From NCBI GenBank assembly GCA_965229645.1, contig OZ245893.1:534965-598964 (forward strand): DNA of 64,000 bases, in the 5' to 3' direction. The DNA comes from Alphaproteobacteria bacterium. GTDB taxonomy: Bacteria; Pseudomonadota; Alphaproteobacteria; UBA7985. This document shows positions 7,466 to 63,422 of this stretch, piece after piece. The position numbers and the translations under genes are program-made. How positions within the stretch are numbered: the stretch's first letter is position 1; every line of letters starts with the position of its first letter. The notes below the pieces were generated by a model. The model was not told where the DNA came from, did not search any database, and saw nothing but the letters and a program-made list of their open reading frames with translations.

Positions 7466-9043
7466 ATGAGCCTGCTTCGGGTTCGCAACCTTTCGATCGA
7501 CTACAAGACCCCAACGCAGGTGGTGCCGGCGGTTCGGGACGTGAGTTTTGAGGTCGCGTCGGGGCGCACCTTGTGCTTGATCGGGGAATCGGGATCGGGC
7601 AAATCAACGGCGGCCTTGTCGATCCCGCAGTTGCTGCCGTCGCCGCCCGCGGTTCTCAGCGCCGAAAGTTCCATCAAGCTCGACGGTCAAGAGCTGACAA
7701 CCCTTACGAACCAGCAGCTACGTCGAGTACGCGGCGCGTCGATTGGGGTGATCTTTCAAGAACCCATGACCTCGCTGAACCCCTTGCAGCGGGCGGGCAA
7801 GCAAATTCTGGAGGCGCTCAAGGTGCATCAGCCGCACCTGCGCCGCCGCGCGCGCATCGACAAGGTGCGGGGTTTGCTGGCGCAGGTCGGTTTGGAGGAC
7901 CCGCGTATCCCCGATTCGTTTCCCCACCTGCTATCAGGCGGGCAGCGGCAGCGGGTTATGATCGCCATGGCGCTTGCCAATAATCCCGCGCTCCTGATCG
8001 CCGATGAGCCGACGACGGCGCTGGATTTAACGACGCAAGAGCAGGTTTTGGATCTGCTCAAGCGCTTGCAGGACGCGCGCAATTTGGCCATTTTGCTGGT
8101 GACCCACGACTTTGGGGTCGTGCGCTATATGGGCGGGGATGCGGTGGTGCTGCGCGACGGGCAGGGGGTCGAAGCAGGTCCCGTGACCCAAGTCCTATCG
8201 GCACCTGTCGCCGACTATACGCGCGCGCTCTTGTCTGCCGAACCAGGGGATCCGCCCCCTCGATCGACGTCGCCCGCCCCCCCCGTCTTGTCGGTGCAGG
8301 ACCTGCAGGTTTCCTATCCTGGTACGCGCGGTCATGGGGACGTGGAGGCGGTGAAGCCGATCAGCTTTGACCTCGCCCCAGGGGAAACTTTGGGATTGGT
8401 CGGGGAGTCGGGGTCGGGCAAGTCATCGCTTGCGCTGGCGGTTCTGCAACTCCTGCCCCACGGCGGGCAAACGCGTTTGGCGGGGCAGGTCTTGGAAACA
8501 CTGAAGGATCGCGAGTTGCGCGCGCGCCGCGCCGATGTGCAAATTGTATTTCAAGATCCCTTTTCCAGTCTGTCCCCGCGCCTAAGCGCCGCCGAAATCG
8601 TTGCCGAAGGGTTGGAAGTGCATCAGCCCGATTTGTCGGCGGCGGATCGCGATGCCCGCGTCGAAGACATGCTGGAACAGGTGCAGCTGGATCCCCGCGA
8701 CAAGTACCGATACCCGCATGAGTTTTCGGGCGGTCAGCGCCAGCGCCTCGCTTTGGCGCGGGCCTTGATCCTGGCCCCGAAAGTCGTGATTTTGGACGAG
8801 CCGACGTCAGCCCTCGACCGCGCGGTCCGCGCCGAGTTCTTGACGCTGCTGCGTACCTTGCAAACGTCAAAAGGTCTGGCCTACCTGTTCATCAGTCACG
8901 ACCTGGCGGTGGTTCGATCCCTCGCGCATCATCTGATCGTGATGGCGCAGGGGCGGGTGATGGAACAGGGCCCAAGTGCGGATCTATTCGCAAACCCTAA
9001 CCACCCCTATACCCAAAACCTGTTCAAGGCCTTGCTAACTTGA
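7466..9043 (+). CDS. yejF: Peptide ABC transporter double ATPase YejF
   Basis: Two Walker A motifs (GESGSGKS) and two signature motifs (LSGGQRQR, FSGGQRQR). Confidence 0.9.
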   Translation: MSLLRVRNLSIDYKTPTQVVPAVRDVSFEVASGRTLCLIGESGSGKSTAALSIPQLLPSPPAVLSAESSIKLDGQELTTLTNQQLRRVRGASIGVIFQEPMTSLNPLQRAGKQILEALKVHQPHLRRRARIDKVRGLLAQVGLEDPRIPDSFPHLLSGGQRQRVMIAMALANNPALLIADEPTTALDLTTQEQVLDLLKRLQDARNLAILLVTHDFGVVRYMGGDAVVLRDGQGVEAGPVTQVLSAPVADYTRALLSAEPGDPPPRSTSPAPPVLSVQDLQVSYPGTRGHGDVEAVKPISFDLAPGETLGLVGESGSGKSSLALAVLQLLPHGGQTRLAGQVLETLKDRELRARRADVQIVFQDPFSSLSPRLSAAEIVAEGLEVHQPDLSAADRDARVEDMLEQVQLDPRDKYRYPHEFSGGQRQRLALARALILAPKVVILDEPTSALDRAVRAEFLTLLRTLQTSKGLAYLFISHDLAVVRSLAHHLIVMAQGRVMEQGPSADLFANPNHPYTQNLFKALLT

Positions 9044-10544
9044 TCGGAAATTTGGCGCGGATCTGCTGGTCGCGCGCGGGATCGATGTAGGTGGGGCGAT
9101 GGTTTGCGAAGATGTCGCGCACGCGCGCCTTGGCGATGCCCCAGGCGTCGGGCGCGCCCATCTCATTCCATAGATTGGGGGCCGAGCGGTCGGCGAGGCT
9201 GGGGTAGTAGTAGTCGCGTTCCATGGCCGCCATGGTATGCGCCCCGCCCAAGAAGTGACCTTCGCCAAATACCGCCGCCTTGATCGCCTCAAACGCCAGC
9301 GTTTCTTCGCGCACTTCCACGCCGCGAATGGCGCGGGTGGCATGGGCCAGCATCTCATTGTCGAGGACCATGGCCTCAAACGAGACCCCGAGTAGGCTCG
9401 CCATCATGCCCGCGCTCTCATAAATCATATTGGCCCCCGCCAAGCCCGTGAGGGCGGAGGTCAGGGCTTTCTCTGCGCCCATTTGCGCATCGACTGCTTT
9501 GGCGTCGGCCATGCTCGCCGCAACGCCCGAGGGCAGGCCAAGGGCGTTGGACACTTGCGCGGAGGCGGCGTTCATGAGGGCAATTTCGCCGCCCGACCCG
9601 CAAAAGGCGCCAGAACGCAGGTCGATCACAAAGGGCCAGTTGGAAAAGATCATCGGGTGCCCAGGGGCGAACAGTTGGACCATGGCGAGCGCTGCTAGAG
9701 TTTCCGCTGTCCCCGCCACCACCATGCCGGCGACGGTGGCGGGCGCCGTCGCGCCCGACTGCGCGGCGATAATGGCGTTGATCGGCATTCCCACCTCAAT
9801 CGCCGCGAGCGCGACGTCAAAGGCGTCTTCGCCGTACTTCAGCGGCGAGATGATCGGGGAGATGTGGACATTGCAAAATGGCCGTTCGCGAAACCGCCCA
9901 GGGCCTCCCAACACGAGATCAAACATGTCCACCACAGGTTGAACATACGACCCGAGAAAGAAGGAGGTGCCGACGGGCTTTTCGGTGCCCGCGAGCAGGG
10001 CGTAGGCCGTATTGATGTCGAGGTCGTAATTGTCGGGCAAGTCCGTCGCGACGCAGATGCGGGTAAAGACGCTGATCTGGTCCATCTTGTCTGCGAGGCG
10101 GGTGAAGTCGTAGAGGTCTTGCAAGGTCGAGGCACGATAGAGTCCTGTGTCCATATCCAGGGTTTGCACGCCCGCCCCGCCCGTGCAGTAATAGGTGCCC
10201 GTGCCGACCTGAATATCAAACTTGGGATTGCGTCCGTGGAAGGTATAGGTGCTGGGTGTGCCCGCGACGAGGGCTTCCAGCATGGCTCGGGGAAAGCACA
10301 GCCGCCCAGCCTTCAGGAACGCGCCGTGCCTGAGGGCTTGGTCTTGTAGGCGTGCGGGCACCTGGCCCATGCCGATCTCTGCTAGCACGCGGTAGGCTTC
10401 GTCGATGATGCGCACGACCTCTTCGTCGCTCAGGGGCCGATACTGCCCGCCCACTTGCCCTGGGGGAACGGGATTTATGTCCTGCTCAACGGCCCGTCGC
10501 GCCGCGACACGGCCCGCACGGCCGCCAGTAGATCGTCTTGACAT
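9024..10544 (-). CDS. Trimethylamine/glycine-betaine methyltransferase family protein (MttB, non-pyrrolysine type)
   Basis: Arg/Gly-rich N-terminus; ISPLKY and SGATAPAT motifs; E-x-GHFLG C-terminal motif; no in-frame TAG. Confidence 0.85.
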   Translation of the reverse strand: MSRRSTGGRAGRVAARRAVEQDINPVPPGQVGGQYRPLSDEEVVRIIDEAYRVLAEIGMGQVPARLQDQALRHGAFLKAGRLCFPRAMLEALVAGTPSTYTFHGRNPKFDIQVGTGTYYCTGGAGVQTLDMDTGLYRASTLQDLYDFTRLADKMDQISVFTRICVATDLPDNYDLDINTAYALLAGTEKPVGTSFFLGSYVQPVVDMFDLVLGGPGRFRERPFCNVHISPIISPLKYGEDAFDVALAAIEVGMPINAIIAAQSGATAPATVAGMVVAGTAETLAALAMVQLFAPGHPMIFSNWPFVIDLRSGAFCGSGGEIALMNAASAQVSNALGLPSGVAASMADAKAVDAQMGAEKALTSALTGLAGANMIYESAGMMASLLGVSFEAMVLDNEMLAHATRAIRGVEVREETLAFEAIKAAVFGEGHFLGGAHTMAAMERDYYYPSLADRSAPNLWNEMGAPDAWGIAKARVRDIFANHRPTYIDPARDQQIRAKFPIKLARP

Positions 10545-10556
10545 GGGCGCGACTTA

Positions 10557-10605
10557 TAGCAACGGCCAAAAAAGTTGACCCTTTTTTGGCCGTTTTTGTG
10601 TCTTG
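10557..10605 (-). mobile_element. Truncated terminal hairpin of the ~195-bp repeat, inverted and abutting copy A
   Basis: TAGCAACGGCCAAAAAAGTTGACCCTTTTTTGGCCGTTTTTGTGTC matches the reverse complement of the element's right end. Confidence 0.85.
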
Positions 10606-10609
10606 TTTA

Positions 10610-10804
10610 ATACCAGCGGCGACTGAAAATGACTCTTATGTTCGCTGGTATAAGGGCCGCGACTGCGGCCCCCGTAGCGGCCCCGAGAATAGCGCGAAAG
10701 CGCCTCGGGGTAAAGCGAAGGCCCCGTCGGAGGCGAAACGCGAAGCGTTTCTGCCGTGAGACATAAAACGGGCAAAAAAGTGTCAACTTTTTTGCCCGCT
10801 GGTA
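10610..10804 (+). mobile_element. MITE-like repeat, copy A (195 bp, flanked by TA...TA)
   Basis: ATACCAGCG...CGCTGGTA; near-identical to four other copies in the window. Confidence 0.9.
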
Positions 10805-10861
10805 TAAGGGGATACGAGCCTTTTCTTACCCCGTGCGTGATCATGTGCGGTGAGGTTGAAG

Positions 10862-11065
10862 CGTCGATTTTGGGGTGGCCACCCCAAAATCGACGGCGGG
10901 GCTGGATCAAGTGTGTCTAGGCGCTGCGTTGCAGGCACCGTTCGTGAGTTTGATCACCCCGTCTTTCCTCCAAGTGGCCTGAATGGATACTAAGAAGCCA
11001 CCTGAGCGTCCCGTATGACAAGAAACGGAACGGAAAGACATCCTTCCTTACCATCGGAATTGGTG
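10862..11065 (-). ncRNA. Candidate structured RNA (sRNA or mttB leader)
   Basis: Three-way junction, second stem-loop and a 34-bp palindrome; three mismatches become G-U pairs only on the minus strand; TTGACA at 11099-11094. Confidence 0.4.
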
Positions 11066-50842: not shown

Positions 50843-52133
50843 TCAAAATCCTTGAATGAGTGTCTTTAAGAACTCGTTGCTCCATCCCGCGCGTTTGAAC
50901 TTGACGCGATTTGAGGACTTGTCGTTGTTAGCCTTTATGATGTTCAAAGCAATGCGCCGTAAGGCAGCAAAGTTTGCAGGTGCGTTGCCCTTTCTCGCAC
51001 GATGGAAATCCTCGTTCATCACGACATCTAGGGACCAATGTAAGCTATTTTCAATCTGCCAATGACCACGGATTAGATTGGCAGCCTCCTGAGCGTTGCT
51101 CTGCTTTGACATAAGATAAATTCGCTCTTCTTGGCTAACTTTCCCATCAATTTCACGCTTATACAACACGTGGACGAAAGCAGAAAGGTGGGGCCAATTA
51201 TGGGTTTGTGTCACATAATCTGGGACTTCATAAACTCTATAGCGGCGCTCCTCAATACGGCCGTGGTCAGCATCTGTGGAACTGTACTCATTCGCCCAAA
51301 TCGTTTGTGGGTCTGCAATAAAGGTCTGAATATCGTTCATCAATCCCTTTTGGTTGGCCTTGAGTTGTATGCAATACTCTGCACCTTGAGCGGCGATCAG
51401 TTCGCAGGTCTCGCGTTGGCAGTGCAGGGCGTCGGCGGTAAGAGTGATACCACGAATATCAAGCAAACTCACGCAGCGCTAAAATCTCACTGCCTGCCTT
51501 AGCGCTTTGAGTAATACCAAGACTTAACCGCGCCCCATGGGCAAACGCCGTGACCAGGTTAAGGTTTGACTTCTTGGCAGCTTTATCAAAGCTCCCACGC
51601 AACTCCTTACCATCAATAGCAACGGCCTTTTGCTTTTCATCAGTGTTTGCAAAATCAGCTCGAAACTTTTCAAAAAACGCCTGAAAACTGTCTGGCTTCA
51701 TCAACTGAAACAGGCGTGAAAATGCGTCGTGACTGGGTAAACCCAGAGGAAGTTCCAGAAACTCGCGCAAAAAATCCTCCTTGCTGCGAGCAAAATGTTC
51801 CATGTCAACTGCCGTTTCACCCCCACATAGGGCGCACAAAAGGCTTATCGTCATCAAGTCGCAGAACTTGTGATACCAGCGGCGAATGAGAATGACTCTT
51901 ATATTCGCTGGTATAAGGGCCGCGACTGCGGCCCCCGTAGCGGCCCCGAGAATGGCGCGAAAGCGCCTCGGGGTATAAGCGAAGGCCCCGTCGGAGGCGA
52001 AACGCGAAGCGTTTCTGCCGTGAGACATAAAACGGCCAAAAAGGTGTCAACCTTTTTGGCCGTTGGTATGACGTGGGGCATTGCTCGTTCGAGGATCATC
52101 TAACTCGTTGAAATAATTGACTAGTAAGGGCAT
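50843..52133 (-). pseudogene. ISAs1 transposase pseudogene
   Basis: DDPR, PSHDAF, AIDGK, TADALHCQ, HGRIE and HWQIENSLHW motifs; interrupted by repeat copy E and frameshifted near 51465. Confidence 0.9.
51873..52068 (+). mobile_element. MITE-like repeat, copy E (196 bp, flanked by TG...TG)
   Basis: Inserted in the transposase gene; removing it plus one TG restores ...NAPRHKFCD... Confidence 0.92.
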
Positions 52134-53230: not shown

Positions 53231-53379
53231 CTTGTTGATCCGAAGTTGAATTATGCTTAGGTCTCATACTCTTTATCAGCGTTCGGCTTTTCCCCGAAAG
53301 TCTGACCATTTTGAGGGGGCCTGGCTATAGTGTCCCTTGTTTGTCGTGCAGCATGAAGGCAAATGAAGTAGAAACTAAC

Positions 53380-56007
53380 ATGCCCGAGAATCGTATCGAA
53401 ATTGACACCGCTTTTGTGTTTGGAAATTTTGTCATTTCCAATAGCGAGGCCCCCAATGCCGTTGCGCCAAGATTGGATTGGGGCGAACCTTCCTATATTA
53501 TGCAAGGCGGTGAACCCAATTTGTTTTTGGCTTTGCAATGGCGCTACAACTTGGCGCCAACCTTGCGGGGCAGAGATCGGGAGCTGCAATCCCTTATGGA
53601 GTGGGCAGAGGACGGCGAATCTAACATTCAAATCCGATTGCTTACTGGCGGGGGTGGCAGCGGCAAAACACGGTTGGCGGCGACCGCGGCAAGAGAGTTA
53701 CGCACGCGCGGTTGGGCCGCAGGGTTCTTGCCTCGCGACGCTGACGCGACGCATGTCATCATTAGTCCAAAGGGCGAAACCCTGCGCAAGCTGTTTCTCA
53801 TCATGGATTACCCCGAGGAACGGATGAATGTCGTTGAAAAACTGATCCGCGCGGTCAGCGATATCAGCGACACTCTTGTCGATTTTCCGATCCGCATTTT
53901 GCTGGTCTCACGCCGTGGCCTCGACGGTTGGCAACAGATTATGGATCATATGGGCCATCGCGCGGGTCGTCAGGCCCTAGCTGAGCTTGATGCGCTCAGT
54001 GTGGACCAAGCCCATGCCCTATTTGTCGAGACAGCGAGTGCCTTCGCCCAACTTACGGGCAAGTCTCAGCCCGATCTGGTCGGGGTGCGGGATTGGCTAT
54101 CGGTGGACAAGGGCCATCGAGTGCCGCTGGTATCCATGGCTGCTGCTATCCATCAGGTGATAACGGGTGACTCTGGATTTGGCTTGGGCGCGCATGGGGT
54201 GATCACAGCACTGGCCAAGTTTGAATGTGTTCGGGCAAAGAAGGTGTCACGAGATCAAGACTTGGGCGAGATGGCAATTCCCCGCTTGTTGGCATTGGCC
54301 GCCATGAGTAGCGACGGACTTTCAGATGATCAGTGCATCCAACTTGCGGGATTGGGCGTCGGTGAACAGAGCAATCAAAAGTTCATCGACCGCCTTGCAA
54401 ATACGCCCTGGCATCACCGAAAAGAAGATGGAACAGGCTATATCACAAGACCCGAACCTGACCGGATGGCGGCGGTGTTCATGGGTTTGATATTGCTTGA
54501 TAGGGTCGAGAGCAAGTTGCCAGAATGGATAGCTGTGGCGGTTGAACCTGACGCAGAGCAATTTGGCGCCAATCTTAATCGCATTGGTTTTGATTTGATT
54601 AGCGCACCGCCAGCTTGGTCACAAAGGTTAGAAACAACCCTCGCCAAGATGATTGAAGCAAGCCCTGAGCGCGCAGCCCATTTTATGGGTATGGCGATGC
54701 AGGAGGCGGGGGTATTCTCGGCAGGATTCGCGACGGTTATTTTGCAAGGATTGCTCAATTTGGAAGTTGGAGGAGCTGAATTTCGCAGCACTTTGCTAAA
54801 CAATTTCAGTGGGCACCTGTCCAAAATTGGCCGCCGCGAGGAGGCCTTAGATGCCGCCCAGGAAGCGGTCAGAATTTATCGAGAATTGGCAAAGTCCCGG
54901 CCCGATGCCTTTACCCCTGATTTAGCCATGTCGCTTAACAATGTGGCAACCATGCTCTCTGAGTTAGGCCGCCGCGAGGAGGCCTTAGATGCCGCCCAGG
55001 AAGCGGTTACGATTCGCCGAGAATTGGCAAAGTCCCGGCCCGATGCCTTTACCCCTGATTTAGCCATGTCGCTTAACAATGTGGCAACCATGCTCTCTGA
55101 GTTAGGCCGCCGCGAGGAGGCCTTAGATGCCGCCCAGGAAGCGGTTACGATTCGCCGAGAATTGGCAAAGTCCCGGCCCGATGCCTTTACCCCCTATCTA
55201 GCTGGCTCGCTTAACAATTTGGCAAATAGGCTCTCTGAGTTAGGCCGCCGCGAGGAGGCCTTAGATGCCGCCCAGGAAGCGGTTACGATTCGCCGAGAAT
55301 TGGCAAAGTCCCGGCCCGATGCCTTTACCCCCTATCTAGCTGGCTCGCTTAACAATTTGGCAAATAGGCTCTCTGAGTTAGGCCGCCGCGAGGAGGCCTT
55401 AGATACCGCCCAGGAAGCGGTCAGAATTTATCGAGAATTGGCAAAGTCCCGGCCCGATGCCTTTACCCCTGATTTAGCCATGTCGCTTAACAATGTGGCA
55501 AATAGGCTCTCTGAGTTAGGCCGCCGCGAGGAGGCCTTAGATGCCGCCCAGGAAGCGGTTACGATTCGCCGAGAATTGGCAAAGTCCCGGCCCGATGCCT
55601 TTACCCCTGATTTAGCCATGTCGCTTAACAATGTGGCAACCATGCTCTCTGAGTTAGGCCGCCGCGAGGAGGCCTTAGATGCCGCCCAGGAAGCGGTTAC
55701 GATTCGCCGAGAATTGGCAAAGTCCCGGCCCGATGCCTTTACCCCTGATTTAGCCATGTCGCTTAACAATGTGGCAACCATGCTCTCTGAGTTAGGCCGC
55801 CGCGAGGAGGCCTTAGATGCCGCCCAGGAAGCTGTGACAAAGCTGCGTCCCCTGTTCCTGGACTCGCCATTGGCGTTCATGTCATGGATGGGAACTATGG
55901 CGCAAACATATATTAGGCGATGCCAAGACACAAAAACAGAACCCGATATTCAACTTCTCCAACCCATTTTCGAAATCTTTGAAAAATTCAACTCTCAACC
56001 CAAGTGA
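53380..56007 (+). CDS. NLR-like protein: short N-terminal motif, STAND-type P-loop NTPase and TPR array
   Basis: LRGRDREL..L..W, Walker A GGGGSGKT, Walker B LFLIMDYPE, ILLVSR; 46-aa TPR-like repeats; alternative ATG at 53353. Confidence 0.85.
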   Translation: MPENRIEIDTAFVFGNFVISNSEAPNAVAPRLDWGEPSYIMQGGEPNLFLALQWRYNLAPTLRGRDRELQSLMEWAEDGESNIQIRLLTGGGGSGKTRLAATAARELRTRGWAAGFLPRDADATHVIISPKGETLRKLFLIMDYPEERMNVVEKLIRAVSDISDTLVDFPIRILLVSRRGLDGWQQIMDHMGHRAGRQALAELDALSVDQAHALFVETASAFAQLTGKSQPDLVGVRDWLSVDKGHRVPLVSMAAAIHQVITGDSGFGLGAHGVITALAKFECVRAKKVSRDQDLGEMAIPRLLALAAMSSDGLSDDQCIQLAGLGVGEQSNQKFIDRLANTPWHHRKEDGTGYITRPEPDRMAAVFMGLILLDRVESKLPEWIAVAVEPDAEQFGANLNRIGFDLISAPPAWSQRLETTLAKMIEASPERAAHFMGMAMQEAGVFSAGFATVILQGLLNLEVGGAEFRSTLLNNFSGHLSKIGRREEALDAAQEAVRIYRELAKSRPDAFTPDLAMSLNNVATMLSELGRREEALDAAQEAVTIRRELAKSRPDAFTPDLAMSLNNVATMLSELGRREEALDAAQEAVTIRRELAKSRPDAFTPYLAGSLNNLANRLSELGRREEALDAAQEAVTIRRELAKSRPDAFTPYLAGSLNNLANRLSELGRREEALDTAQEAVRIYRELAKSRPDAFTPDLAMSLNNVANRLSELGRREEALDAAQEAVTIRRELAKSRPDAFTPDLAMSLNNVATMLSELGRREEALDAAQEAVTIRRELAKSRPDAFTPDLAMSLNNVATMLSELGRREEALDAAQEAVTKLRPLFLDSPLAFMSWMGTMAQTYIRRCQDTKTEPDIQLLQPIFEIFEKFNSQPK
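54829..55832 (+). repeat. Intragenic tandem repeat, 7 x 138 bp plus a partial unit (TPR-coding)
   Basis: Units start at 54829, 54967, 55105, 55243, 55381, 55519, 55657 and 55795 (partial). Confidence 0.97.
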
Positions 56008-56025
56008 TCCAACGAGGAAAATACC

Positions 56026-56439
56026 ATGGATGATCTCATTTTCACCGCCGTTGCCACCATGGCAACGGTCCTAACCAACAAAGTCGGCGAGGATGCTTAT
56101 GGTTCGCTAAAGACCTATCTTTGTGACAGACTGGGGCTTCGGCCAAGTTTGCGGGTTTTTGAACGCCAGCCTGATAGTGATGAACAACAGAAATGGCTTG
56201 CCGAAGACTTGAAGGACTCGTCCGCCGCCACAGACCCAGAGTTCGAAAGGCTCGTGAAAGTCGTGCAAGGGGAGCTGGAAAGCCGCAACCTGGATTTTCA
56301 AAACGCTTTGCGTATTAAGGCCAATGAAGGTGCATTTATCACGCTTGGCAAGGTAGATATTGAGGGATCTGCTGGCGTGGATATTTCTGGAAACCCCAAA
56401 GCAACGATTAAGGTAAAGAACATAAAAGTCCGCGCCTAA
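56026..56439 (+). CDS. Small Bell/HeLo-like helical protein with a beta-rich C-terminal tail
   Basis: Hydrophobic N-terminal helix; DAYGSLK..L..RLG, E..PDS, LAEDL...AA.D pattern; GAGGA RBS; starts 18 bp after the NLR stop. Confidence 0.65.
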   Translation: MDDLIFTAVATMATVLTNKVGEDAYGSLKTYLCDRLGLRPSLRVFERQPDSDEQQKWLAEDLKDSSAATDPEFERLVKVVQGELESRNLDFQNALRIKANEGAFITLGKVDIEGSAGVDISGNPKATIKVKNIKVRA

Positions 56440-56710: not shown

Positions 56711-58204
56711 ATGAGAGCGGATAGGACCATCGCCGCGTATCGGCGCATGCGCGATCAGCCCTTGTGGCGGTTGCTGGCCGCTGACAAGGGGCCAACCATT
56801 ATCGGGTTGCTGCAATCGCACCTCTACGAGCAGGACCGCAGCCTGCCAGGCTCAATCCTGTTCGAACGCTTGACGCGGGATTTGGAAGAGTTGCGGGCCC
56901 AGGGCGAAGAATTGCCGCAGACAGCGCAGGCCTATGTGGCCAGTTGGCTCGGGGCGGGGTACCTGAAGCGCCGCTTTCCCTCGGGGGCAACAGAGGAGGA
57001 ATATGAGCTTTCGACCGCCACGGTGGAGGCCATTCGCTTTCTTTCTGCCATCGCCAAACCCCATTCGACGGCGACCGAGAGCCGTCTGTCGCTGGTGATT
57101 CAGGCGCTCGCGGCCTTGGCCGAGGATACGGATACGGATCAGTCCCGCCGGATCGAGCGATTGATGGCCGAACAGGCCCGCATCGATCGGGAAATCGACG
57201 CCATCAAAACCGGTCGCATGCGGGTGCTGTCGCACCATGCCGCCCTTGAGCGCGCGCGCGAAATTATCTCGCTCGCTGACGATTTAACGGGCGACTTTCG
57301 CCGGGTACGCGATCAGTTTGAACAACTGAATCGCGAGTTGCGCGAGCAGATCATGGACAATGACGGCAATCGCGGCGAGGTGCTCAACTCCTTGTTCGCA
57401 GGGATCGATCTGATCACGGAGAGCGAAGCGGGTCGGACTTTCTCCGCTTTCTGGCGCTTGCTCACCGATCCCGAGCAAGCAGCGGTGTTGGAGGAGGCAT
57501 TGGACAGCGTCGTATCCCGCGCCTTTGCGCAGGATTTGGCCTTGCAGGAACGGCGTTTCCTTTTGCGGTTGACCCGAAATCTATTGGAGCAAGGCGGGGG
57601 TGTCCACGACGTGTTGCAGACCTTCGCGCGCAGCCTCAAGCACTTCGTGCAAAGCCGCGAATACCTAGAGCAGCGTCGCGTGACCCAGTTACTCCGAGAC
57701 GCGCAGCGCGCCGCCCTTAGGATTAAGGACGGGGTTAAGACCACCGAAACGCTCGACTATGGGTTGGAACTGACCAGCAGTCGCGTGCGTTCCCTCGCCC
57801 AATGGGTGCTTTACGACCCGTCAGCGCAGGCCGAGCCTGAGGCGATGCGCAAAGGTCCGCCGCCGCCCGTCGATCTGGACACGGTCGGGGAGCTGGTAGC
57901 GCAGTCGGAAATCGATTTTCGCACTTTGAAGGCGCATGTTCGCTCGGTTCTGGAACAGCGTGCCCAAGCCTCAATCGCCGATGTTCTGGAGGCCTTTCCT
58001 GCCGAACAGGGCTTGGGCAGTATTGTTGGGCTCATTGCCTTGGGCAGCCGCCACGGGGTTCGCGGCGTCGAACAACACGAGGGGGCGGCGGCCGTTGCGA
58101 CGATTGAAACCGTCGCTTGGGTAGGGGATGATGCGCAAGGGCGCAGCGCGCGAATTCCAAAAATCTACTTTTTGAGGGATCGCGTTGATGAATTGGTTGG
58201 ATAG
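56711..58204 (+). CDS. jetA: Wadjet protein JetA (DUF3375)
   Basis: PLWRLLAAD, ATESRL, DFRRV, SEAGRTF.AFW and QGLGS motifs; first gene of a four-gene operon. Confidence 0.88.
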   Translation: MRADRTIAAYRRMRDQPLWRLLAADKGPTIIGLLQSHLYEQDRSLPGSILFERLTRDLEELRAQGEELPQTAQAYVASWLGAGYLKRRFPSGATEEEYELSTATVEAIRFLSAIAKPHSTATESRLSLVIQALAALAEDTDTDQSRRIERLMAEQARIDREIDAIKTGRMRVLSHHAALERAREIISLADDLTGDFRRVRDQFEQLNRELREQIMDNDGNRGEVLNSLFAGIDLITESEAGRTFSAFWRLLTDPEQAAVLEEALDSVVSRAFAQDLALQERRFLLRLTRNLLEQGGGVHDVLQTFARSLKHFVQSREYLEQRRVTQLLRDAQRAALRIKDGVKTTETLDYGLELTSSRVRSLAQWVLYDPSAQAEPEAMRKGPPPPVDLDTVGELVAQSEIDFRTLKAHVRSVLEQRAQASIADVLEAFPAEQGLGSIVGLIALGSRHGVRGVEQHEGAAAVATIETVAWVGDDAQGRSARIPKIYFLRDRVDELVG

Positions 58205-58889
58205 GGTCGAGGACGAAGAAGGGCCAGCAATTCAGGCGGACGAGGCGGAACCCGAGCAGGCGCTGTATCAGGGGGATCAAGGGGTTTTAACGTTGGACAC
58301 TCGCCGTGTGCTGGTCCAGCTTCTCACGGGTCCGTCCTTGGAATCGCGGCGTCATTCCAAGCTGTGGCCAGTTTTGATTCGGGAGGAAACAGCGATCCGT
58401 AGCCGCCTGTCGGAACTATTTTTGCAGTTGGTGATCGATCGCGATATGCAGGTCGCCTTTACCCGACAGGCCGATACGGGCGACCTTGAGGTTCCTCGGT
58501 TGTTGCGTCGGGCCAACTTAACTTTTTTGGACTCGCTCTTGTTGCTGCAATTGCGCGGACGCCTCACCCAGGCCGACGCCCATGGCGACCGGGCCGTGGT
58601 ATCGACCAGCGAGATCGTGGAGTTTCTCCAGGTTTATGAACAGGCGAGCAATACGGATCAGGCCTTGTTCGAAAAGCGCATTCATGCGTCGATCGAGAAA
58701 ATCAAAAAGCACAGTATCTTGCGCAAAATCCGCGCCAGCGAGGACCGTTTCGAGATTTCTCCGACGCTAAAATTGCTGTTTTCGGCTGAAGATATCCAGG
58801 CCTTAACCTCGATCTATCACCTTCGGCACAGCGCGGGCGCCTCACCTGAACATCAGGAAGAGGCGCAAACCGACGAGGATCGGGAATGA
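58188..58889 (+). CDS. jetB: Wadjet protein JetB (DUF4194)
   Basis: RRVLVQLL.GP, RSRLSELFL.L, LTFLDS.LLL.LR and ISPTLKLLF motifs. Confidence 0.88.
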   Translation: MNWLDRVEDEEGPAIQADEAEPEQALYQGDQGVLTLDTRRVLVQLLTGPSLESRRHSKLWPVLIREETAIRSRLSELFLQLVIDRDMQVAFTRQADTGDLEVPRLLRRANLTFLDSLLLLQLRGRLTQADAHGDRAVVSTSEIVEFLQVYEQASNTDQALFEKRIHASIEKIKKHSILRKIRASEDRFEISPTLKLLFSAEDIQALTSIYHLRHSAGASPEHQEEAQTDEDRE

Positions 58890-61800
58890 GCGACGCCGAG
58901 GGCATGTCATATCTGTTTGCGCAGGAACAGTTCCGCATGGTCAAGCTGCAGGTATTTAACTGGGGCACCTTTTCCGACGTTCATACCATCCCGATCACCG
59001 AGCAAGGCTTTTTATTCGTCGGTCGCTCCGGCGCAGGCAAATCGACCTTGCTCGACGCCTTTTCCGCCCTGCTGGTGCCGCCGCGCTGGGTCGATTTCAA
59101 TGCTGCCGCGCGGGAGGCGGAACGGACGGGGCGGGATCGCAATCTGGTCAGCTATATTCGCGGCGCCTGGGCGGAACAAAAGGACGAGGCCTCGGGCGAG
59201 ATCGCAACGCGCACCCTGCGCGCGGGCACGACCTGGTCGGCGCTGGCCCTTAGCTACCGAAACGCCTCGGATCAGTATGTGGTCTTGGTGCAAGTCCTGT
59301 GGTTGCGCGGCGGCGCAAACGGCGCGGGTGACGTCAAACGCCATTTCATGATCTTCGAACGGCCCTTTGACCTGGAGGAATTGGAAGTCTTTGGGCAGTC
59401 CAACCTCGATGTGCGCAAGCTCAAGCAGAGTCTTGAACAGGCCTTTCATGGCAGTGATTTCAGCGCCTATGCCGCGCGGTTTCGACGTTTGCTCGGCATC
59501 GAGAATGAGATGGCCCTGCGCCTGCTGCACAAGACCCAATCGGCCAAGAACCTCGGAGACCTCAACACCTTTTTGCGCGATTTTATGCTCGATAAGCCCG
59601 CGACCTTCGACGTGGCGGATCGTCTGGTCAGCGAATTTGACGAACTCAATGCCGCGCACCAGGCGGTCGTCAACGCCCGCAAGCAAGTGGAGACCCTGGT
59701 TCCTGCGCGCGAGGCCTACGCGGCGCGGACGGCGATTTTGCAGGACCAAAGCCATCTGAGTGACTTGCTCGCGGGAATCGATACCTATGGCGCGCGCTGT
59801 CGCGTCGATCTGCTCACGGCAGAGATCGAGCGCTTGGTCGTTCAAGCGGAGGGATTGCAGGGCGAGAAGGACAGGCGGAAAGCGACGCTTACCCAGCAAC
59901 AAGATGTTTTGCGTGACCTGGAGCGGCGCCATCGCGAGGTCGGCGGCGATCAAGTGGAAACCTGGCAAGCGGAAAAGGCATCGCTGGAACGGCGGCGGGA
60001 TCAGTGCCTTAGAAAGCAACAGCAAGCGAAGGGGGCCTTCGAGCAGCTCGACTGGGTGGTTCCGCAATCGCCTCACGATTTTGCCGCGCGGATTGGCGAG
60101 GCGCGGCAAGTCCTTGAGAGTTGGGAGCGGCGCAGAAACGAGATTCGCGAGCAACGGGACCGGTTGGTGATCCGTCGGCAGGAAGCCGAGGCGGCCCTTG
60201 TCCAAACCCGCGAAGAGGTGACGGCCCTGGCGCGGCAACCCTCCAACATCCCTGCGCGCATGTTGGCCTTACGAACCGAGATTTCTAAGGCCATCGGGGT
60301 GTCGGAGCGGGCCTTGCCGTTCGTTGGAGAACTGATCGAGGTGAAAGCCGATGAGGGCGCATGGCAAGGGGCCATAGAGCGGGTGCTGCACGGATTCGCG
60401 CTCTCGCTGTTGGTCGATGACCGTCACTACGCCGCCCTTTCCACTTACCTGAACGGTCGTCATCTGGGCCAGCGATTGGTCTATTACCGCACAGGGCAGG
60501 GCGATCACCCGCCTGCCAAACCCGTGGGAACCGACTCCCTGGTCCTGAAACTCACGATTGGGGAGGCCAATCAAGCAGAGTGGTTGCGTGCGGAGCTTCG
60601 CCGCCGCTTTGACTACCTCTGCGTTGACTCCCTGCAAGCCCTAAGGCGTGCGGACCGCGCCCTCACTCGCGAAGGTCAAGTCAAACACAGCAAGACCCGC
60701 CACGAGAAAAACGACCGCCGCGCGGTCGCTGACCCCAAGCACTGGGTCTTGGGATTTGACAATCAGGAGAAGTTGGCGCTCTACAAGGCCCAAGCCCAGA
60801 CGCTGGCGACGGAACTTTCCGATTTGGGCGACCAACTGCAGAACCTAACGAACCAAGAAGGTGCCCAATCCGACCGCGCCATGCATTGTCAGACCTTGGT
60901 CAATTTGCAGTGGCAAGAGGTCGATGTTGCGCCGCTGCTCACGGGGATCGAACAATTGGAGCGCCAGATTCGCCGCACACTGGACGGCGATAGCGGCTTG
61001 AAGACCATCGCCGATCAAATCACGCGACAAGAAGGGGTTGTGGAGCGGGCCGATGCGACTTTGCGCAAGGCGCGCATCGACCATGAGAAAATCGTCGGGC
61101 GGATCGATGACCACGAAACAAGCCTCAAACGCCTGCAAGATGATGCTGCTTTGGTCGCTTTGACACCTGACCAAATGCAAGGGTTGGACGCGCAGTTCGC
61201 GCTTTTGGAATCGCCAGCGCGGCTGGAAAATTTGGATAAGCAGCTCCGGTCGGTCGAGAGGACGATCCGCGAGAATATCGGCGCCTTGGCCCGCGAGGGG
61301 GGCAAGTGCGACCAGCTTATCGTAAGACAGTTCGATACCTTCGTTCGCGAATGGCCCCCAGAATCGGAAGGCCTGGATGCGACCTTAGCGGCGGCATCAG
61401 ATTTTTTTGCCAAGTTGACGCGCCTGGAGGCCGACGGCCTTCCCGCGCACGAACGACGCTTTTTTGAACTGCTTGAGCGGCAGAGCCACCAAAACCTCGC
61501 GGCGCTTTCGACCTATCTAAGCGATGCGCGCAAGCAAATTTTGGAACGTATGGACCTGGTCAACGAGAGTCTTGCCCAGGTGCCCTTCAACCAGAGCGCG
61601 ACCCAAACCACCTTTCTACAAATCGATCCCAGCGAGCGGCAACTGCCCGACGTGCGCGAATTCAAGCAGGAAATCCAGCAGGCCCTGAGCCATGCCTGGA
61701 GCCAAGATCGAGATCTGGCGGAATCGCGGTTTTTGGCCTTGCGTGGTCTGGTTCAGCGTCTTTCCAGTCAAGAACCCGAGAACAAGCGCTGGCGCCAGGC

Positions 61801-62260
61801 CGTGCTCGATGTCCGCCAGCATATGGAATTTATCGGCCGCGAAACCGATGAGGGCGGCGCAGAGGTGGAAGTTTATCGCAGTGGGTCTGGGAAGTCGGGC
61901 GGTCAGCGGCAGAAACTCGCAACGACGTGTTTGGCGGCCGCCTTGCGCTACCAACTCGGCGGCGACGATCTAGGGGTGCCTTTGTACGCGCCCGTTGTAC
62001 TGGATGAGGCCTTTGATAAGGCGGACAACGAATTCACCGCGCTGGCCATGAATATCTTTAAGAACTTTGGATTTCAGATGATTGTTGCGACGCCGCTGAA
62101 GTCGGTCATGACACTGGAACCTTTTATCGGCGGCGCTTGCTTTATCGACATTAGCGAACGGCGAGTTTCAGGGGTCTTGATAATCGAGTATGATCAGCAA
62201 GCCCAGCGCCTGAAGCTGCCCGCCCACGCACGTCGGGAAACAGGTCTTGAAATTTCCTGA
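58886..62260 (+). CDS. jetC: Wadjet SMC-like ATPase JetC
   Basis: NWGTF, Walker A GRSGAGKST, long coiled coils, SGGQRQKL and LDEAFDK motifs. Confidence 0.92.
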   Translation: MSDAEGMSYLFAQEQFRMVKLQVFNWGTFSDVHTIPITEQGFLFVGRSGAGKSTLLDAFSALLVPPRWVDFNAAAREAERTGRDRNLVSYIRGAWAEQKDEASGEIATRTLRAGTTWSALALSYRNASDQYVVLVQVLWLRGGANGAGDVKRHFMIFERPFDLEELEVFGQSNLDVRKLKQSLEQAFHGSDFSAYAARFRRLLGIENEMALRLLHKTQSAKNLGDLNTFLRDFMLDKPATFDVADRLVSEFDELNAAHQAVVNARKQVETLVPAREAYAARTAILQDQSHLSDLLAGIDTYGARCRVDLLTAEIERLVVQAEGLQGEKDRRKATLTQQQDVLRDLERRHREVGGDQVETWQAEKASLERRRDQCLRKQQQAKGAFEQLDWVVPQSPHDFAARIGEARQVLESWERRRNEIREQRDRLVIRRQEAEAALVQTREEVTALARQPSNIPARMLALRTEISKAIGVSERALPFVGELIEVKADEGAWQGAIERVLHGFALSLLVDDRHYAALSTYLNGRHLGQRLVYYRTGQGDHPPAKPVGTDSLVLKLTIGEANQAEWLRAELRRRFDYLCVDSLQALRRADRALTREGQVKHSKTRHEKNDRRAVADPKHWVLGFDNQEKLALYKAQAQTLATELSDLGDQLQNLTNQEGAQSDRAMHCQTLVNLQWQEVDVAPLLTGIEQLERQIRRTLDGDSGLKTIADQITRQEGVVERADATLRKARIDHEKIVGRIDDHETSLKRLQDDAALVALTPDQMQGLDAQFALLESPARLENLDKQLRSVERTIRENIGALAREGGKCDQLIVRQFDTFVREWPPESEGLDATLAAASDFFAKLTRLEADGLPAHERRFFELLERQSHQNLAALSTYLSDARKQILERMDLVNESLAQVPFNQSATQTTFLQIDPSERQLPDVREFKQEIQQALSHAWSQDRDLAESRFLALRGLVQRLSSQEPENKRWRQAVLDVRQHMEFIGRETDEGGAEVEVYRSGSGKSGGQRQKLATTCLAAALRYQLGGDDLGVPLYAPVVLDEAFDKADNEFTALAMNIFKNFGFQMIVATPLKSVMTLEPFIGGACFIDISERRVSGVLIIEYDQQAQRLKLPAHARRETGLEIS

Positions 62261-63422
62261 TGATATTCGCCAAGCGCTAAAGCGGCGCTACAAAACCCAG
62301 CACCGCGAGTGGCTGCAAAGCGGCCTTAAGTGCGACGAGCCCCTGAGCGCTGACACCTGGCCCCTCGAGGTAGCCTTGGGGGTTCCCACCGAACGCCAAG
62401 CCCAAAAGCAGTTGGCCGACGTGCGTGCTTGGGTTGCGGTTTGGCAAGCCTGGAACGGGGCGGGATCGCTGCGCTGGGGCGTGCGGCGGTGGCGCACACT
62501 TGGAACGCAGACCGTTCCCGAAAAACTGCTGCTGGCGGATCCCAGGGACGTCGCATCGTGGATCGGGGAAGCCGAGCGTTGGGCGCGCGCGCAGCGCCGC
62601 TATGGGGATCTGAGGGCGCGCTGGCCGCAGCTAAGCGGCGCGCTGCCGCGCCATTTCGACATGCTCGCGGACTACAGCGAGCAAGACTATGGCCGTCTGA
62701 TCGCTCTCCTCGATTGGATCCAACGCAATCCCACCTCCAACCTCTATCCCAGACAAGTGCCCGTGAGTGGGCTAGACAGCAAGTGGTTTGAAGGGCGCAA
62801 AGGGGTGCTGGCGGACTTGGTCGAAGCCGCGCTGCGCGGCCCGGTGATCGAAGGGGATCCTTTCCAGCGGTGCGGCCTCAAGGCCCCGCCGCGCCTAGTG
62901 CGTTTGCGCATCTTGGACGCCAGCCTAAGGCAGCGGCTGGGCGGTCTCGGCGACATCAGTGCGCCCTGGGAGCAACTGGCCGATCTTGATCTGCCCGCGC
63001 GCCACGTTTTCGTCGTTGAGAATCTGCAAACGGGTCTGGCCTTTGATGATTTGCCAGGGGCGGTGGTGCTGATGGGCCTTGGGTACGGGGTCGATCTGCT
63101 GGGCCGCCTGCCCTGGGTTGCCCAGGCCCAAGGCCTGTACTGGGGAGATTTGGATACCCATGGTTTTGCGATTTTGAACCGCGCGAGAGCCCATGTCCCC
63201 AGCCTGAAATCGATCTTGATGGACGAAGCCACCCTGCGAAGCCATGCGGAACTGTGGACGCAAGAGAAGGTGCCGCATACAGCGGAGGCCTTGCCCCTGT
63301 TAACGCAGGCCGAGCAGTCGGTGTACCAAGCCCTCAAACGCAACATCTGGGGTCAGAATGTCCGTCTCGAACAAGAGCGGATCGCCTGGGACGTGGCGTG
63401 GCGGGTTTTGCGCGACCTGTAG
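62247..63422 (+). CDS. jetD: Wadjet Toprim nuclease JetD (DUF3322/DUF2220)
   Basis: YPRQ, GLDSKWFE, VVEN, G.GY, YWGDLDTHG and RLEQERI motifs; TTG start. Confidence 0.9.
   Translation: MKFPDDIRQALKRRYKTQHREWLQSGLKCDEPLSADTWPLEVALGVPTERQAQKQLADVRAWVAVWQAWNGAGSLRWGVRRWRTLGTQTVPEKLLLADPRDVASWIGEAERWARAQRRYGDLRARWPQLSGALPRHFDMLADYSEQDYGRLIALLDWIQRNPTSNLYPRQVPVSGLDSKWFEGRKGVLADLVEAALRGPVIEGDPFQRCGLKAPPRLVRLRILDASLRQRLGGLGDISAPWEQLADLDLPARHVFVVENLQTGLAFDDLPGAVVLMGLGYGVDLLGRLPWVAQAQGLYWGDLDTHGFAILNRARAHVPSLKSILMDEATLRSHAELWTQEKVPHTAEALPLLTQAEQSVYQALKRNIWGQNVRLEQERIAWDVAWRVLRDL

Follow-up and report, generated by a model that had tools for sequence, protein, structure and literature searches.

The window analysed here is a stretch of 64,000 nucleotides from an alphaproteobacterium of the lineage UBA7985 (contig OZ245893.1, positions 534,965 to 598,964), and the subject is a pair of adjacent genes within it, one for an NLR-like receptor of 884 residues (53353..56007) and one for a Bell/HetE-N-type small effector of 137 residues (56026..56439). 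Positions are counted from the first letter of the window, and all features lie on the forward strand unless stated otherwise. The pair is interpreted as a two-gene accessory NLR/Bell cell-death module, probably one of abortive infection, and by analogy with characterised systems this reading, with signal transfer through beta motifs included, is given a probability of roughly 0.55. That the two proteins form a functional receptor-executor pair can be held with good confidence, and signalling between them would probably proceed by templating or recruitment of the beta motifs.

The receptor open reading frame (ORF) comprises a short N-terminal motif, an NTPase module of the STAND (signal transduction ATPases with numerous domains) type and an array of tetratricopeptide repeats (TPRs). 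The effector ORF begins 18 bp after the end of the receptor ORF on the same strand (56007 to 56026), in agreement with an earlier account of this DNA made from its letters alone, here called the sequence-only reading. A Shine-Dalgarno-like GAGGA, read from the sequence at 56014..56018, is positioned 7 nt before the effector ATG.

Domain anatomy of the effector and the receptor

The AlphaFold2 (AF2) model of the effector, built on 129 sequences, has a predicted local distance difference test (pLDDT) score of 83.7 overall and of 84–96 over residues 1–80. Assignment of secondary structure with DSSP gives five helices (residues 2–18, 22–36, 39–47, 52–64 and 71–86), which form the helical domain (56026..56289) and end at residue 86, followed by six strands. 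The protein starts with MDDLIFTAVATMATVL, a hydrophobic helix after M-D-D, and the consensus start of the family is MDPxxxIVxALAxGA; the acidic residue at position 2 or 3 before the N-terminal hydrophobic helix, the ‘MEPIS’ region, is thus present. Tyr25, Lys29, Glu46 and Pro49 are at least 90% conserved amongst the 129 sequences, in the signature DAY..LK ... LE..P.S. A word-indexed search returned three close relatives with identities of 93, 60 and 55%, all of 137 residues. A profile of the four closest sequences found 145 proteins at E<=1e-3 amongst 1.84 billion representatives (for example P0059 at 4.3e-8), mostly of 115–160 residues and with N-termini resembling MDPIT or MEPIS ahead of a hydrophobic helix. 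The Pfam family PF20701 (HetE-N) matches 34 of the 129 aligned members, with a best E of 4.7e-10, and in the nearest clusters of the ESM-Atlas HetE-N is found in 14–37% of the members, with RHIM also in 19% of one cluster. Ten family hits longer than 200 residues were scanned and seven of these carry a further Pfam domain, namely NACHT, CHAT (three), iSTAND, metallophosphatase or TPR; in P0127 NACHT is fused to HetE-N (30.1 bits, cut-off 25). On the basis of these profile matches the effector is assigned to the Bell/HetE-N family. The Bell half of the earlier description of the protein as Bell/HeLo-like is therefore borne out by the family profile, while for the HeLo half there is no Pfam match at E<=0.1. 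The best match of the family profile amongst the PDB sequences is a designed protein at E=0.027. A full-text literature search, judged by titles and abstract openings, found no publication on PF20701.

The rest of the effector is a tail of two pseudo-repeats. The first, residues 95–117 (LRIKANEGAFITLGKVDIEGSAG; 56308..56376), has predicted strands at residues 93–99, 104–107 and 110–113 and the second, residues 118–137 (VDISGNPKATIKVKNIKVRA; 56377..56436), at 117–122, 127–130 and 133–136. In an alignment of 12 sequences the self-similarity of the tail scores 19.3 at an offset of 23 and is negative at every other offset from 8 to 29; the maximum under the null is -8.5 ± 3.5, and none of 2000 column shuffles reaches 19.3. 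As 23 is the only positive offset, the alignment of the repeats at this offset in the sequence-only reading is correct, as is the helical N-terminus that it placed before them. The two sets of three AF2 strands, about 23 residues apart, are consistent with two rungs, with only the secondary structure being read from the model. Relative to the helical domain the tail is richer in isoleucine (12.5% versus 4.5%), valine (9.7% versus 6.5%), glycine (9.5% versus 5.6%) and asparagine (4.5% versus 1.5%) and poorer in leucine (4.9% versus 12.0%) and proline (0.2% versus 3.1%). The likeness of the first repeat to repeat R1 of HET-s that had been suggested was not recovered: a phmmer search of the tail against the PDB sequences, a set that presumably includes HET-s(218-289), gave only two rows at E<=10, an adenoviral fibre (0.92) and a polygalacturonase (3.5). 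Amongst Bell-like tails in general, recurrent classes other than the 2 × 23 arrangement can be seen, including a glycine-rich class (‘GGGAIAQG...GGVxIGGNVxGG’), ‘KYxIxxxGxxIGVIGDxxxIEGGIHF’ and one like ‘GDGNIQIQGSGNVTI’, and each class may mark a receptor class of its own.

In the receptor, Pfam identifies TPR_10 in eight stretches (6.1e-59) together with TPR_12. P-loop families are found only below threshold, AAA_16 at 27.7 bits (cut-off 32.6; residues 71–156) and nSTAND_NTPase5 at E=5.2e-4, and the Pfam models NB-ARC and NACHT give no match. The AF2 model of residues 1–470, made from a 20-sequence alignment (A5), has a pLDDT of 86.2 and a predicted template modelling score of 0.86. Its Foldseek matches, with E from 4e-7 to 1e-5, are plant NRC3, EfAvs5, a wheat resistosome, MalT, Apaf-1, NLRC4 and NLRPs, and the likeness of its fold to NRC3, EfAvs5, MalT, Apaf-1 and NLRC4 indicates an NTPase of the STAND/NLR type. 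The P-loop, GGGGSGKT, is at residues 99–106 (53647..53670), and Gly99, Gly101, Gly102, Gly104 and Lys105 are invariant in a 20-sequence receptor alignment. Amongst the known defence-system models of PADLOC the best for the receptor is mad8 at E=0.011, which is not meaningful, and neither NCBIfam nor PADLOC gives a meaningful score for the receptor or the effector. The C-terminal part contains a near-identical TPR array (54829..55832), for which Tandem Repeats Finder reports a unit of 138 bp, or 46 residues, in 7.3 copies with 95% matches. Two homologs that are 99 and 96% identical to the receptor over the first 480 residues have 838 and 1022 residues against its 884, differences of one and three units of 46. 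The seven units vary at only about seven positions (R/T, Y/R, D/Y, M/G, V/L, T/N and M/R, in few combinations), and the array looks like a sensor that diversifies through repeat shuffling, as in fungal NLRs.

The N-terminus of the receptor carries a conserved beta-prone motif, IEIDTAFVFGNFVISN (53395..53442), defined from a 10-sequence alignment. Its consensus in ten homologs, which are 37–66% identical over the first 110 residues, is hydrophobic-x-hydrophobic-x-N-hydrophobic-hydrophobic-A-F-G-N-hydrophobic-x-hydrophobic; Gly24 is invariant, and conservation is 90% or more at Ala22, Phe23 and Asn25. The AF2 model has a pLDDT below 50 over residues 1–18 and a confident fold from about residue 41, with the strands of the motif (20–23 and 26–29) forming a low-confidence hairpin (pLDDT 39–60) that has no confident packing. 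Neither Pfam nor the model reveals an effector domain at the N-terminus, in line with the earlier view that the receptor has only a short beta-prone peptide there. Of the more distant homologs, P0016 and P0020 begin directly at the NTPase module; P0022, P0023, P0025, P0028, P0030 and P0031 have other short motifs rich in glycine, asparagine, glutamine or histidine; and P0024 has an alpha/beta-hydrolase domain (PF12697), to which the N-termini of P0026 and P0027 are similar. The different motif of P0023 and P0025 reads GNFA[VI]GV[QE]GNVTQ. Since the AFGN motif is conserved, other homologs have other motifs or a hydrolase in its place, and AF2 leaves it unpacked, the N-terminus appears from these comparisons to behave like a swappable signalling slot.

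The receptor ORF has two in-frame ATGs, at 53353 (MKANEVETNM...) and at 53380 (MPENRIEID...), between which the homologs do not decide: P0006 begins at the second, while the gene calls of P0004 and P0005 begin at the first. The motif is retained with either. The ‘KANE’ that was once thought to be common to the receptor and the effector lies in the leader between the two, which is absent from the 69%-identical homolog P0006, and is not conserved. A promoter-like site 5′ of the gene (CTGACC, an 18-nt spacer and TATAGT; 53302..53331; 9/12 matches in a consensus scan) would, if used, exclude a start at TTG 53311, though it is weakly supported, as the region has five such sites where shuffles have 2.8 ± 1.9.

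Gene linkage and distribution

In all five loci of the AFGN receptor family for which DNA was available the receptor is followed by a Bell-like ORF on the same strand, detected with the family profile at E between 1e-24 and 1e-39. The gap is 18 bp in the window, 10 bp on a conjugative plasmid of Rhizobium sp. SL42 (locus L033), 57 bp on pRlX3 of R. ruizarguesonis (L034) and up to 135 bp in a metagenome contig where the start of the effector is unclear (L030); in Novispirillum itersonii (L002) the genes overlap. The receptor comes first in each. Across these loci the identity falls to 32% for the receptor and is about 25–30% for the effector. A more distant STAND relative from a proteobacterial metagenome-assembled genome (L007) has an equal gene order with a gap of 3 bp. 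Linkage of the genes in other genomes, which had been set beforehand as a test of the pair, is thus found in 5/5 loci and in L007. Three further pairs are inferred only from source contigs of equal size: P0002/P0006 (4028 bp), P0062/P0011 (4321 bp) and P0064/P0014 (6217 bp).

The L007 locus (7845–11006) encodes a STAND/TPR receptor of 922 residues and then a Bell-like protein of 129. At L033 (8942–12505) the pair adjoins genes for a caspase-family protein and an EAD1-containing protein, another conflict-system pair. On pRlX3 two receptor/Bell-like pairs are found back to back (L034 1–3886 and 5001–8771), the second of which has the classical effector-first order, with the Bell-like gene at 3431–3886 on the minus strand followed by that of a large ATP-binding protein; the annotation also places a predicted AAC(3) gene some 2.4 kb away.

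The distribution of the receptor and the effector is accessory. Amongst 7999 scored candidates there are 52 receptor homologs at E<=1e-3. A search of genome contigs with the alignment of the receptor N-terminus gave at least 28 loci, with L002 the only one listed whose match spans most of the query. In the flanks fetched for the 28 distant STAND loci listed, a Bell-like ORF (E<=0.01) was found for L002 and L007 and for none of the other 26. The same alignment gave 86 stretches and one locus in metagenome contigs, and 10 stretches without a relative in viral contigs. At E<=1e-10 the receptor was not found in any of the 40 relatives searched, including both of the same genus (0/2) and all 14 of the same family (0/14). 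Of 400 other genomes searched in the class, a single one matches the Bell-like profile, weakly (E=3.2e-4) and with stop codons in the match. The genome of the window has one copy of the effector. Searches with it gave 62 pattern stretches but no relatives in genome contigs and no match in phage records, and in plasmids only the second Bell-like gene of pRlX3.

Likeness of the receptor motif to the effector tail and the mode of signalling

To compare the two proteins of a pair, the N-terminus of the receptor was aligned locally with the tail of the effector, and the score was set against shuffles and against background N-termini from the genome of the window. The test responds strongly to the L007 pair, taken as a positive control: 10 of 24 residues are identical, and the score of 59, against 22.8 ± 4.8 for shuffles, is reached by none of 2000 shuffles and by none of 8456 background N-termini. 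The common motif here (receptor ...SVPGSGNTIVQVVGDGNVV, effector ...NVPGVHNKVTQIAGSGNQV) makes this a clean pair of the amyloid-signalling type, again with the receptor first. Within the AFGN family four of seven pairs have p<0.05 against background N-termini. The values for shuffles and background respectively are 0.065 and 0.008 for P0006/P0002, 0.034 and 0.001 for P0013/L002, 0.008 and 0.002 for P0015/P0202, 0.017 and 0.042 for P0204/P0203, 0.230 and 0.278 for P0011/P0062, and 0.769 and 0.538 for P0008/L030.

Comparison of profiles adds to this at the level of the family. Local alignment of the receptor motif profile with that of the tail scores 10.74 against 7.05 ± 1.1 (p=0.01), and with the profile of the stacked rungs 8.08 against 4.89 ± 0.83 (p=0.006). 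In the best register x-hydrophobic-x-hydrophobic-x-N-hydrophobic-hydrophobic-A-F-G of the receptor falls on the last two strands of the rung, where the pattern is hydrophobic-x-hydrophobic-x-[ND]-hydrophobic-x-A-x-G; the second-best diagonal is the equivalent shifted by 23 residues. When HMMER profiles are run across the two sets of termini the family as a whole is found in the upper ranks (6, 18, 27, 33, 74 and so on). Of 125 Bell-like proteins, 14 have the 6-mer hydrophobic-x-hydrophobic-G-[ND]-hydrophobic within their final 60 residues and none has it in the helical part; amongst the 52 receptor homologs, 13 have it within the initial 40 residues. The corresponding background values are 0.56% of C-termini and 0.48% of N-termini. 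Five tails have two copies, spaced by 23 residues in four and by 24 in one; the window effector itself lacks the strict 6-mer. The termini of receptors and effectors, by these patterns, use the same beta-arc grammar, and across the family motif and tail have a weak but register-consistent likeness. Prediction of a complex between tail residues 85–137 and receptor residues 1–45 gave a score of 0.05 (mark 0.32) in a run without controls, and speaks neither for nor against binding.

A number of results weigh against a matched motif as the means of signal transfer. For the window pair the Smith-Waterman score is 14 against a shuffle mean of 17.7 (p=0.913 for shuffles and 0.705 for background N-termini), so that taken alone its motif likeness appears to be nothing beyond chance. 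The ‘RI...AF..G...I’ pattern by which the sequence-only reading had related the receptor to the first repeat needs gaps, falls within these values (p=0.91 and 0.70) and is rejected, like ‘KANE’, as a chance likeness, and the matching amyloid tag it had seen in the two proteins is not significant, although the same test passes easily on L007. Three of the seven AFGN-family pairs are not significant, and because the seven are mutually related rather than independent, Fisher-type pooling of their p-values was rejected. HMMER profiles of the tails searched against the N-termini of receptors, or of these N-termini against the tails, do not exceed 6.6 bits; the window receptor ranks 715th amongst about 8467 N-termini and the window tail 485th amongst about 8470 C-termini. 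In the alignment of profiles, the controls with a reversed profile reach 7.76 and 6.37. The column-shuffle null destroys the alternation of beta strands, so that the p of about 0.01 may reflect only a common beta-arc grammar. The best register varies among pairs, and since a rung has 23 residues and the receptor motif only about 17, a whole rung could not be stacked in register. The tail is not depleted in lysine (7.9%) or enriched in glutamine (2.8%), unlike the composition given for BASS motifs in the published description (10.1101/2020.01.06.895854). In P0017 the motif is found at residue 163, after an N-terminal extension of about 150 residues, and in the second pRlX3 pair the annotated N-terminus of the ATP-binding protein has no evident matching motif. 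As for the effector itself, it has no direct Pfam match at E<=0.1, PF20701 included, and its model has no Foldseek match in the PDB at E<=0.001 and only generic helical bundles in VIA-align wide (best Z 5.4), neither search pointing clearly to a solved HeLo, MLKL four-helix-bundle or Bell-type (Babybell) structure.

The sequences themselves establish the domain anatomy, the double repeat, the kinship of the effector with Bell/HetE-N proteins, the linkage of the two genes and their accessory occurrence. The mechanism proposed is drawn from HET-S/NWD2, the Bell/BASS pairs and Bab/Agp, from which oligomerisation, templating, membrane attack and a role in defence are all inferred. The TPR array of the STAND NTPase would sense a trigger, upon which the receptor would oligomerise and gather its short flexible N-terminal beta motifs, with their AFGN core. 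The cluster of motifs would then recruit or template the two-rung beta tail of the effector with its 23-residue period, and folding or stacking of the tail may free the first, hydrophobic helix of the five-helix Bell-type domain to damage the membrane. In a more specific form, which we consider rather doubtful, the tail would fold into a beta-solenoid of two rungs, a bacterial counterpart of HET-s with a period of 23 residues. Its nucleation would come from a receptor motif equivalent to no more than a part of the rung, namely the [ND]-hydrophobic-x-A-x-G arc and the strand after it. Were this so, templating could operate through a common beta-arc geometry with almost no sequence identity, and screens based on sequence matching would miss the whole class, which here extends over chromosomes of Alphaproteobacteria and plasmids of rhizobia.

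The principal alternative retains the pair but has ordinary binding to a folded tail in place of templating. Here, without any amyloid or prion-like step, a natively folded two-rung beta cap would hold the Bell domain shut, the oligomerised receptor would bind the tail by beta-strand addition or through another surface, and activation would come from induced proximity. This would account for the lack of significant motif identity in the window pair and for a receptor motif that is shorter than a rung and ambiguous in register. It also fits with the folding of the tail by AF2 in the monomer (pLDDT 64–79) and with the wide conservation of the two-repeat tail in Bell-like proteins, where it does not diversify as a matched tag would. 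Yet the related L007 pair, equal in layout, has a clearly matched motif, both termini are enriched in the G-[ND] beta-arc grammar, and the published Bell systems act, as they are described, by templating (10.1101/2024.11.07.622273), so that ordinary binding seems a possible but unlikely substitute.

Less probable still is that the effector is not the executor of the receptor at all. It could instead regulate or inhibit the NTPase, or its gene could be an unrelated one transcribed together with that of the receptor, with the receptor signalling by another route; the function of the pair is, after all, read from the genes alone, and the receptor matches no known defence-system model, the best being mad8 of PADLOC at E=0.011. 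Against this, adjacency is kept in 5/5 loci and L007 at low sequence identity, the effector is homologous to a family that is also fused to NACHT NTPases at the effector position, and the receptor itself lacks an effector domain. A role outside defence is similarly improbable, be it in the recognition of kin or self, in plasmid addiction or as a switch in stress or development. The presence of the pair on conjugative rhizobial plasmids would suit such a role, as would the role of fungal relatives in allorecognition, as reported in the account of Bab/Agp (10.1101/2024.11.07.622273), and the absence of matches to the effector in phage records and to the receptor N-terminus in viral contigs; but a Wadjet system adjoins the pair in the window and caspase and EAD1 genes adjoin it in L033, the distribution is accessory with a variable number of sensor repeats, and Bab/Agp is described as an abortive-infection system (10.1101/2024.11.07.622273). 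The reading as an NLR/Bell cell-death module with transfer through beta motifs is accordingly preferred over these alternatives.

Known systems, neighbourhood and significance

The Bell domain has been described in proteins of about 120–140 residues as a five-helix bundle with an acidic residue at position 2 or 3; it is rarely fused N-terminally to NLRs, and Bell-RHIM proteins exist (Dyrka et al. 2020, bioRxiv 10.1101/2020.01.06.895854). According to the same description the pairs of Bell and BASS proteins resemble the window pair in having a small all-alpha five-helix effector with the acidic residue and a beta-prone C-terminal tail, a collinear and close-set STAND/TPR receptor gene with a short N-terminal motif replacing the effector domain, and, in BASS1 and BASS6, a motif that is repeated in the effector and single in the receptor (10.1101/2020.01.06.895854). 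The window pair differs from them in its receptor-first order, its alphaproteobacterial lineage, plasmids included, its contiguous repeats without a proline-rich linker and its lack of a detectable match between the motifs of receptor and effector. As its NTPase is not called as NB-ARC or NACHT by Pfam, the pipeline would not, as described, have collected it (10.1101/2020.01.06.895854).

Bab/Agp of E. coli ECOR25 (BASS11) is likewise a proteobacterial pair in a defence island, in which, as reported, a small Bell-related helical executor with a C-terminal amyloid-type motif adjoins a TPR sensor that carries the motif at its N-terminus, and the ‘MEPIS’-type N-terminal helix region is conserved (Ibarlosa et al. 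2024, bioRxiv 10.1101/2024.11.07.622273). Bab is shorter, at 109 residues, with four helices cupping helix 1, and by that report the Bab/Agp motif is clearly common to both proteins and a proven amyloid, whereas the window pair is known from its genes alone (10.1101/2024.11.07.622273). The likeness to the fungal HET-S/NWD2 system, with its HET-s-related amyloid motif (HRAM), is one of design only: in the available descriptions a single N-terminal motif of an NLR is paired with an effector made of a helical membrane-targeting domain and two pseudo-repeats, and three strands are predicted per repeat in both. No sequence relationship was found (no HeLo in Pfam at E<=0.1, and HET-s absent from the PDB rows at E<=10). 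The window repeats have a period of 23 residues instead of the 21 given for HET-S, no flexible loop lies between them, and the receptor motif is shorter than a rung.

The kind of system is therefore already known, as far as the published descriptions go, with Bell proteins of BASS1 and BASS6 reported to have paired pseudo-repeats (10.1101/2020.01.06.895854) and amyloid signalling outside filamentous bacteria established with Bab/Agp of E. coli (10.1101/2024.11.07.622273); the statement in the sequence-only reading that BASS systems occur mainly in filamentous bacteria is outdated by the latter. What is new is an alphaproteobacterial and rhizobial-plasmid subfamily with the receptor first, an NTPase that the NB-ARC and NACHT models of Pfam do not cover, a contiguous tail of 2 × 23 residues and a very low identity between the receptor and effector motifs, in a comparison with the BASS families that was made through their text descriptions only.

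The pair is located in a defence islet, with Wadjet downstream and a remnant of an insertion sequence (IS) upstream. A complete Wadjet JetABCD at 56711–63422, which the earlier account had also placed next to the pair, is made up of JetA (56711–58204; PADLOC 1.4e-197), JetB (58185–58889; PADLOC 4.7e-92), JetC (58886–62260; PADLOC E=0) and JetD (62247–63422; Pfam DUF3322 and JetD_C). Since Wadjet does not adjoin the pair in L002, L030, L033 or L034, the two are separate modules of one islet. The IS remnant consists of two neighbouring ORFs on the minus strand with pieces of a DDE transposase (50843..52028; Pfam DDE_Tnp_1 2.6e-12 and DDE_Tnp_1_assoc 1e-16), which look like one transposase that has been split; the remnant marks the edge of the islet on its upstream side. 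The upstream neighbourhood also has a DUF2852 gene (Pfam), listed after the remnant, and upstream of the islet are the housekeeping genes for COX3, SURF1, an M32 carboxypeptidase and threonine synthase and an ORF for a putative M16-like peptidase.

The window thus offers a compact candidate defence gene pair beside Wadjet, with a receptor that published screens filtering on NB-ARC or NACHT would miss. The clearly matched pair of L007 and the barely matched pair of the window, which have one and the same layout, provide a natural test of how much sequence identity is needed for signal transfer of the amyloid type. Should the pair prove active, unicellular Alphaproteobacteria and conjugative plasmids of rhizobia would join the known carriers of NLR/Bell cell-death modules.

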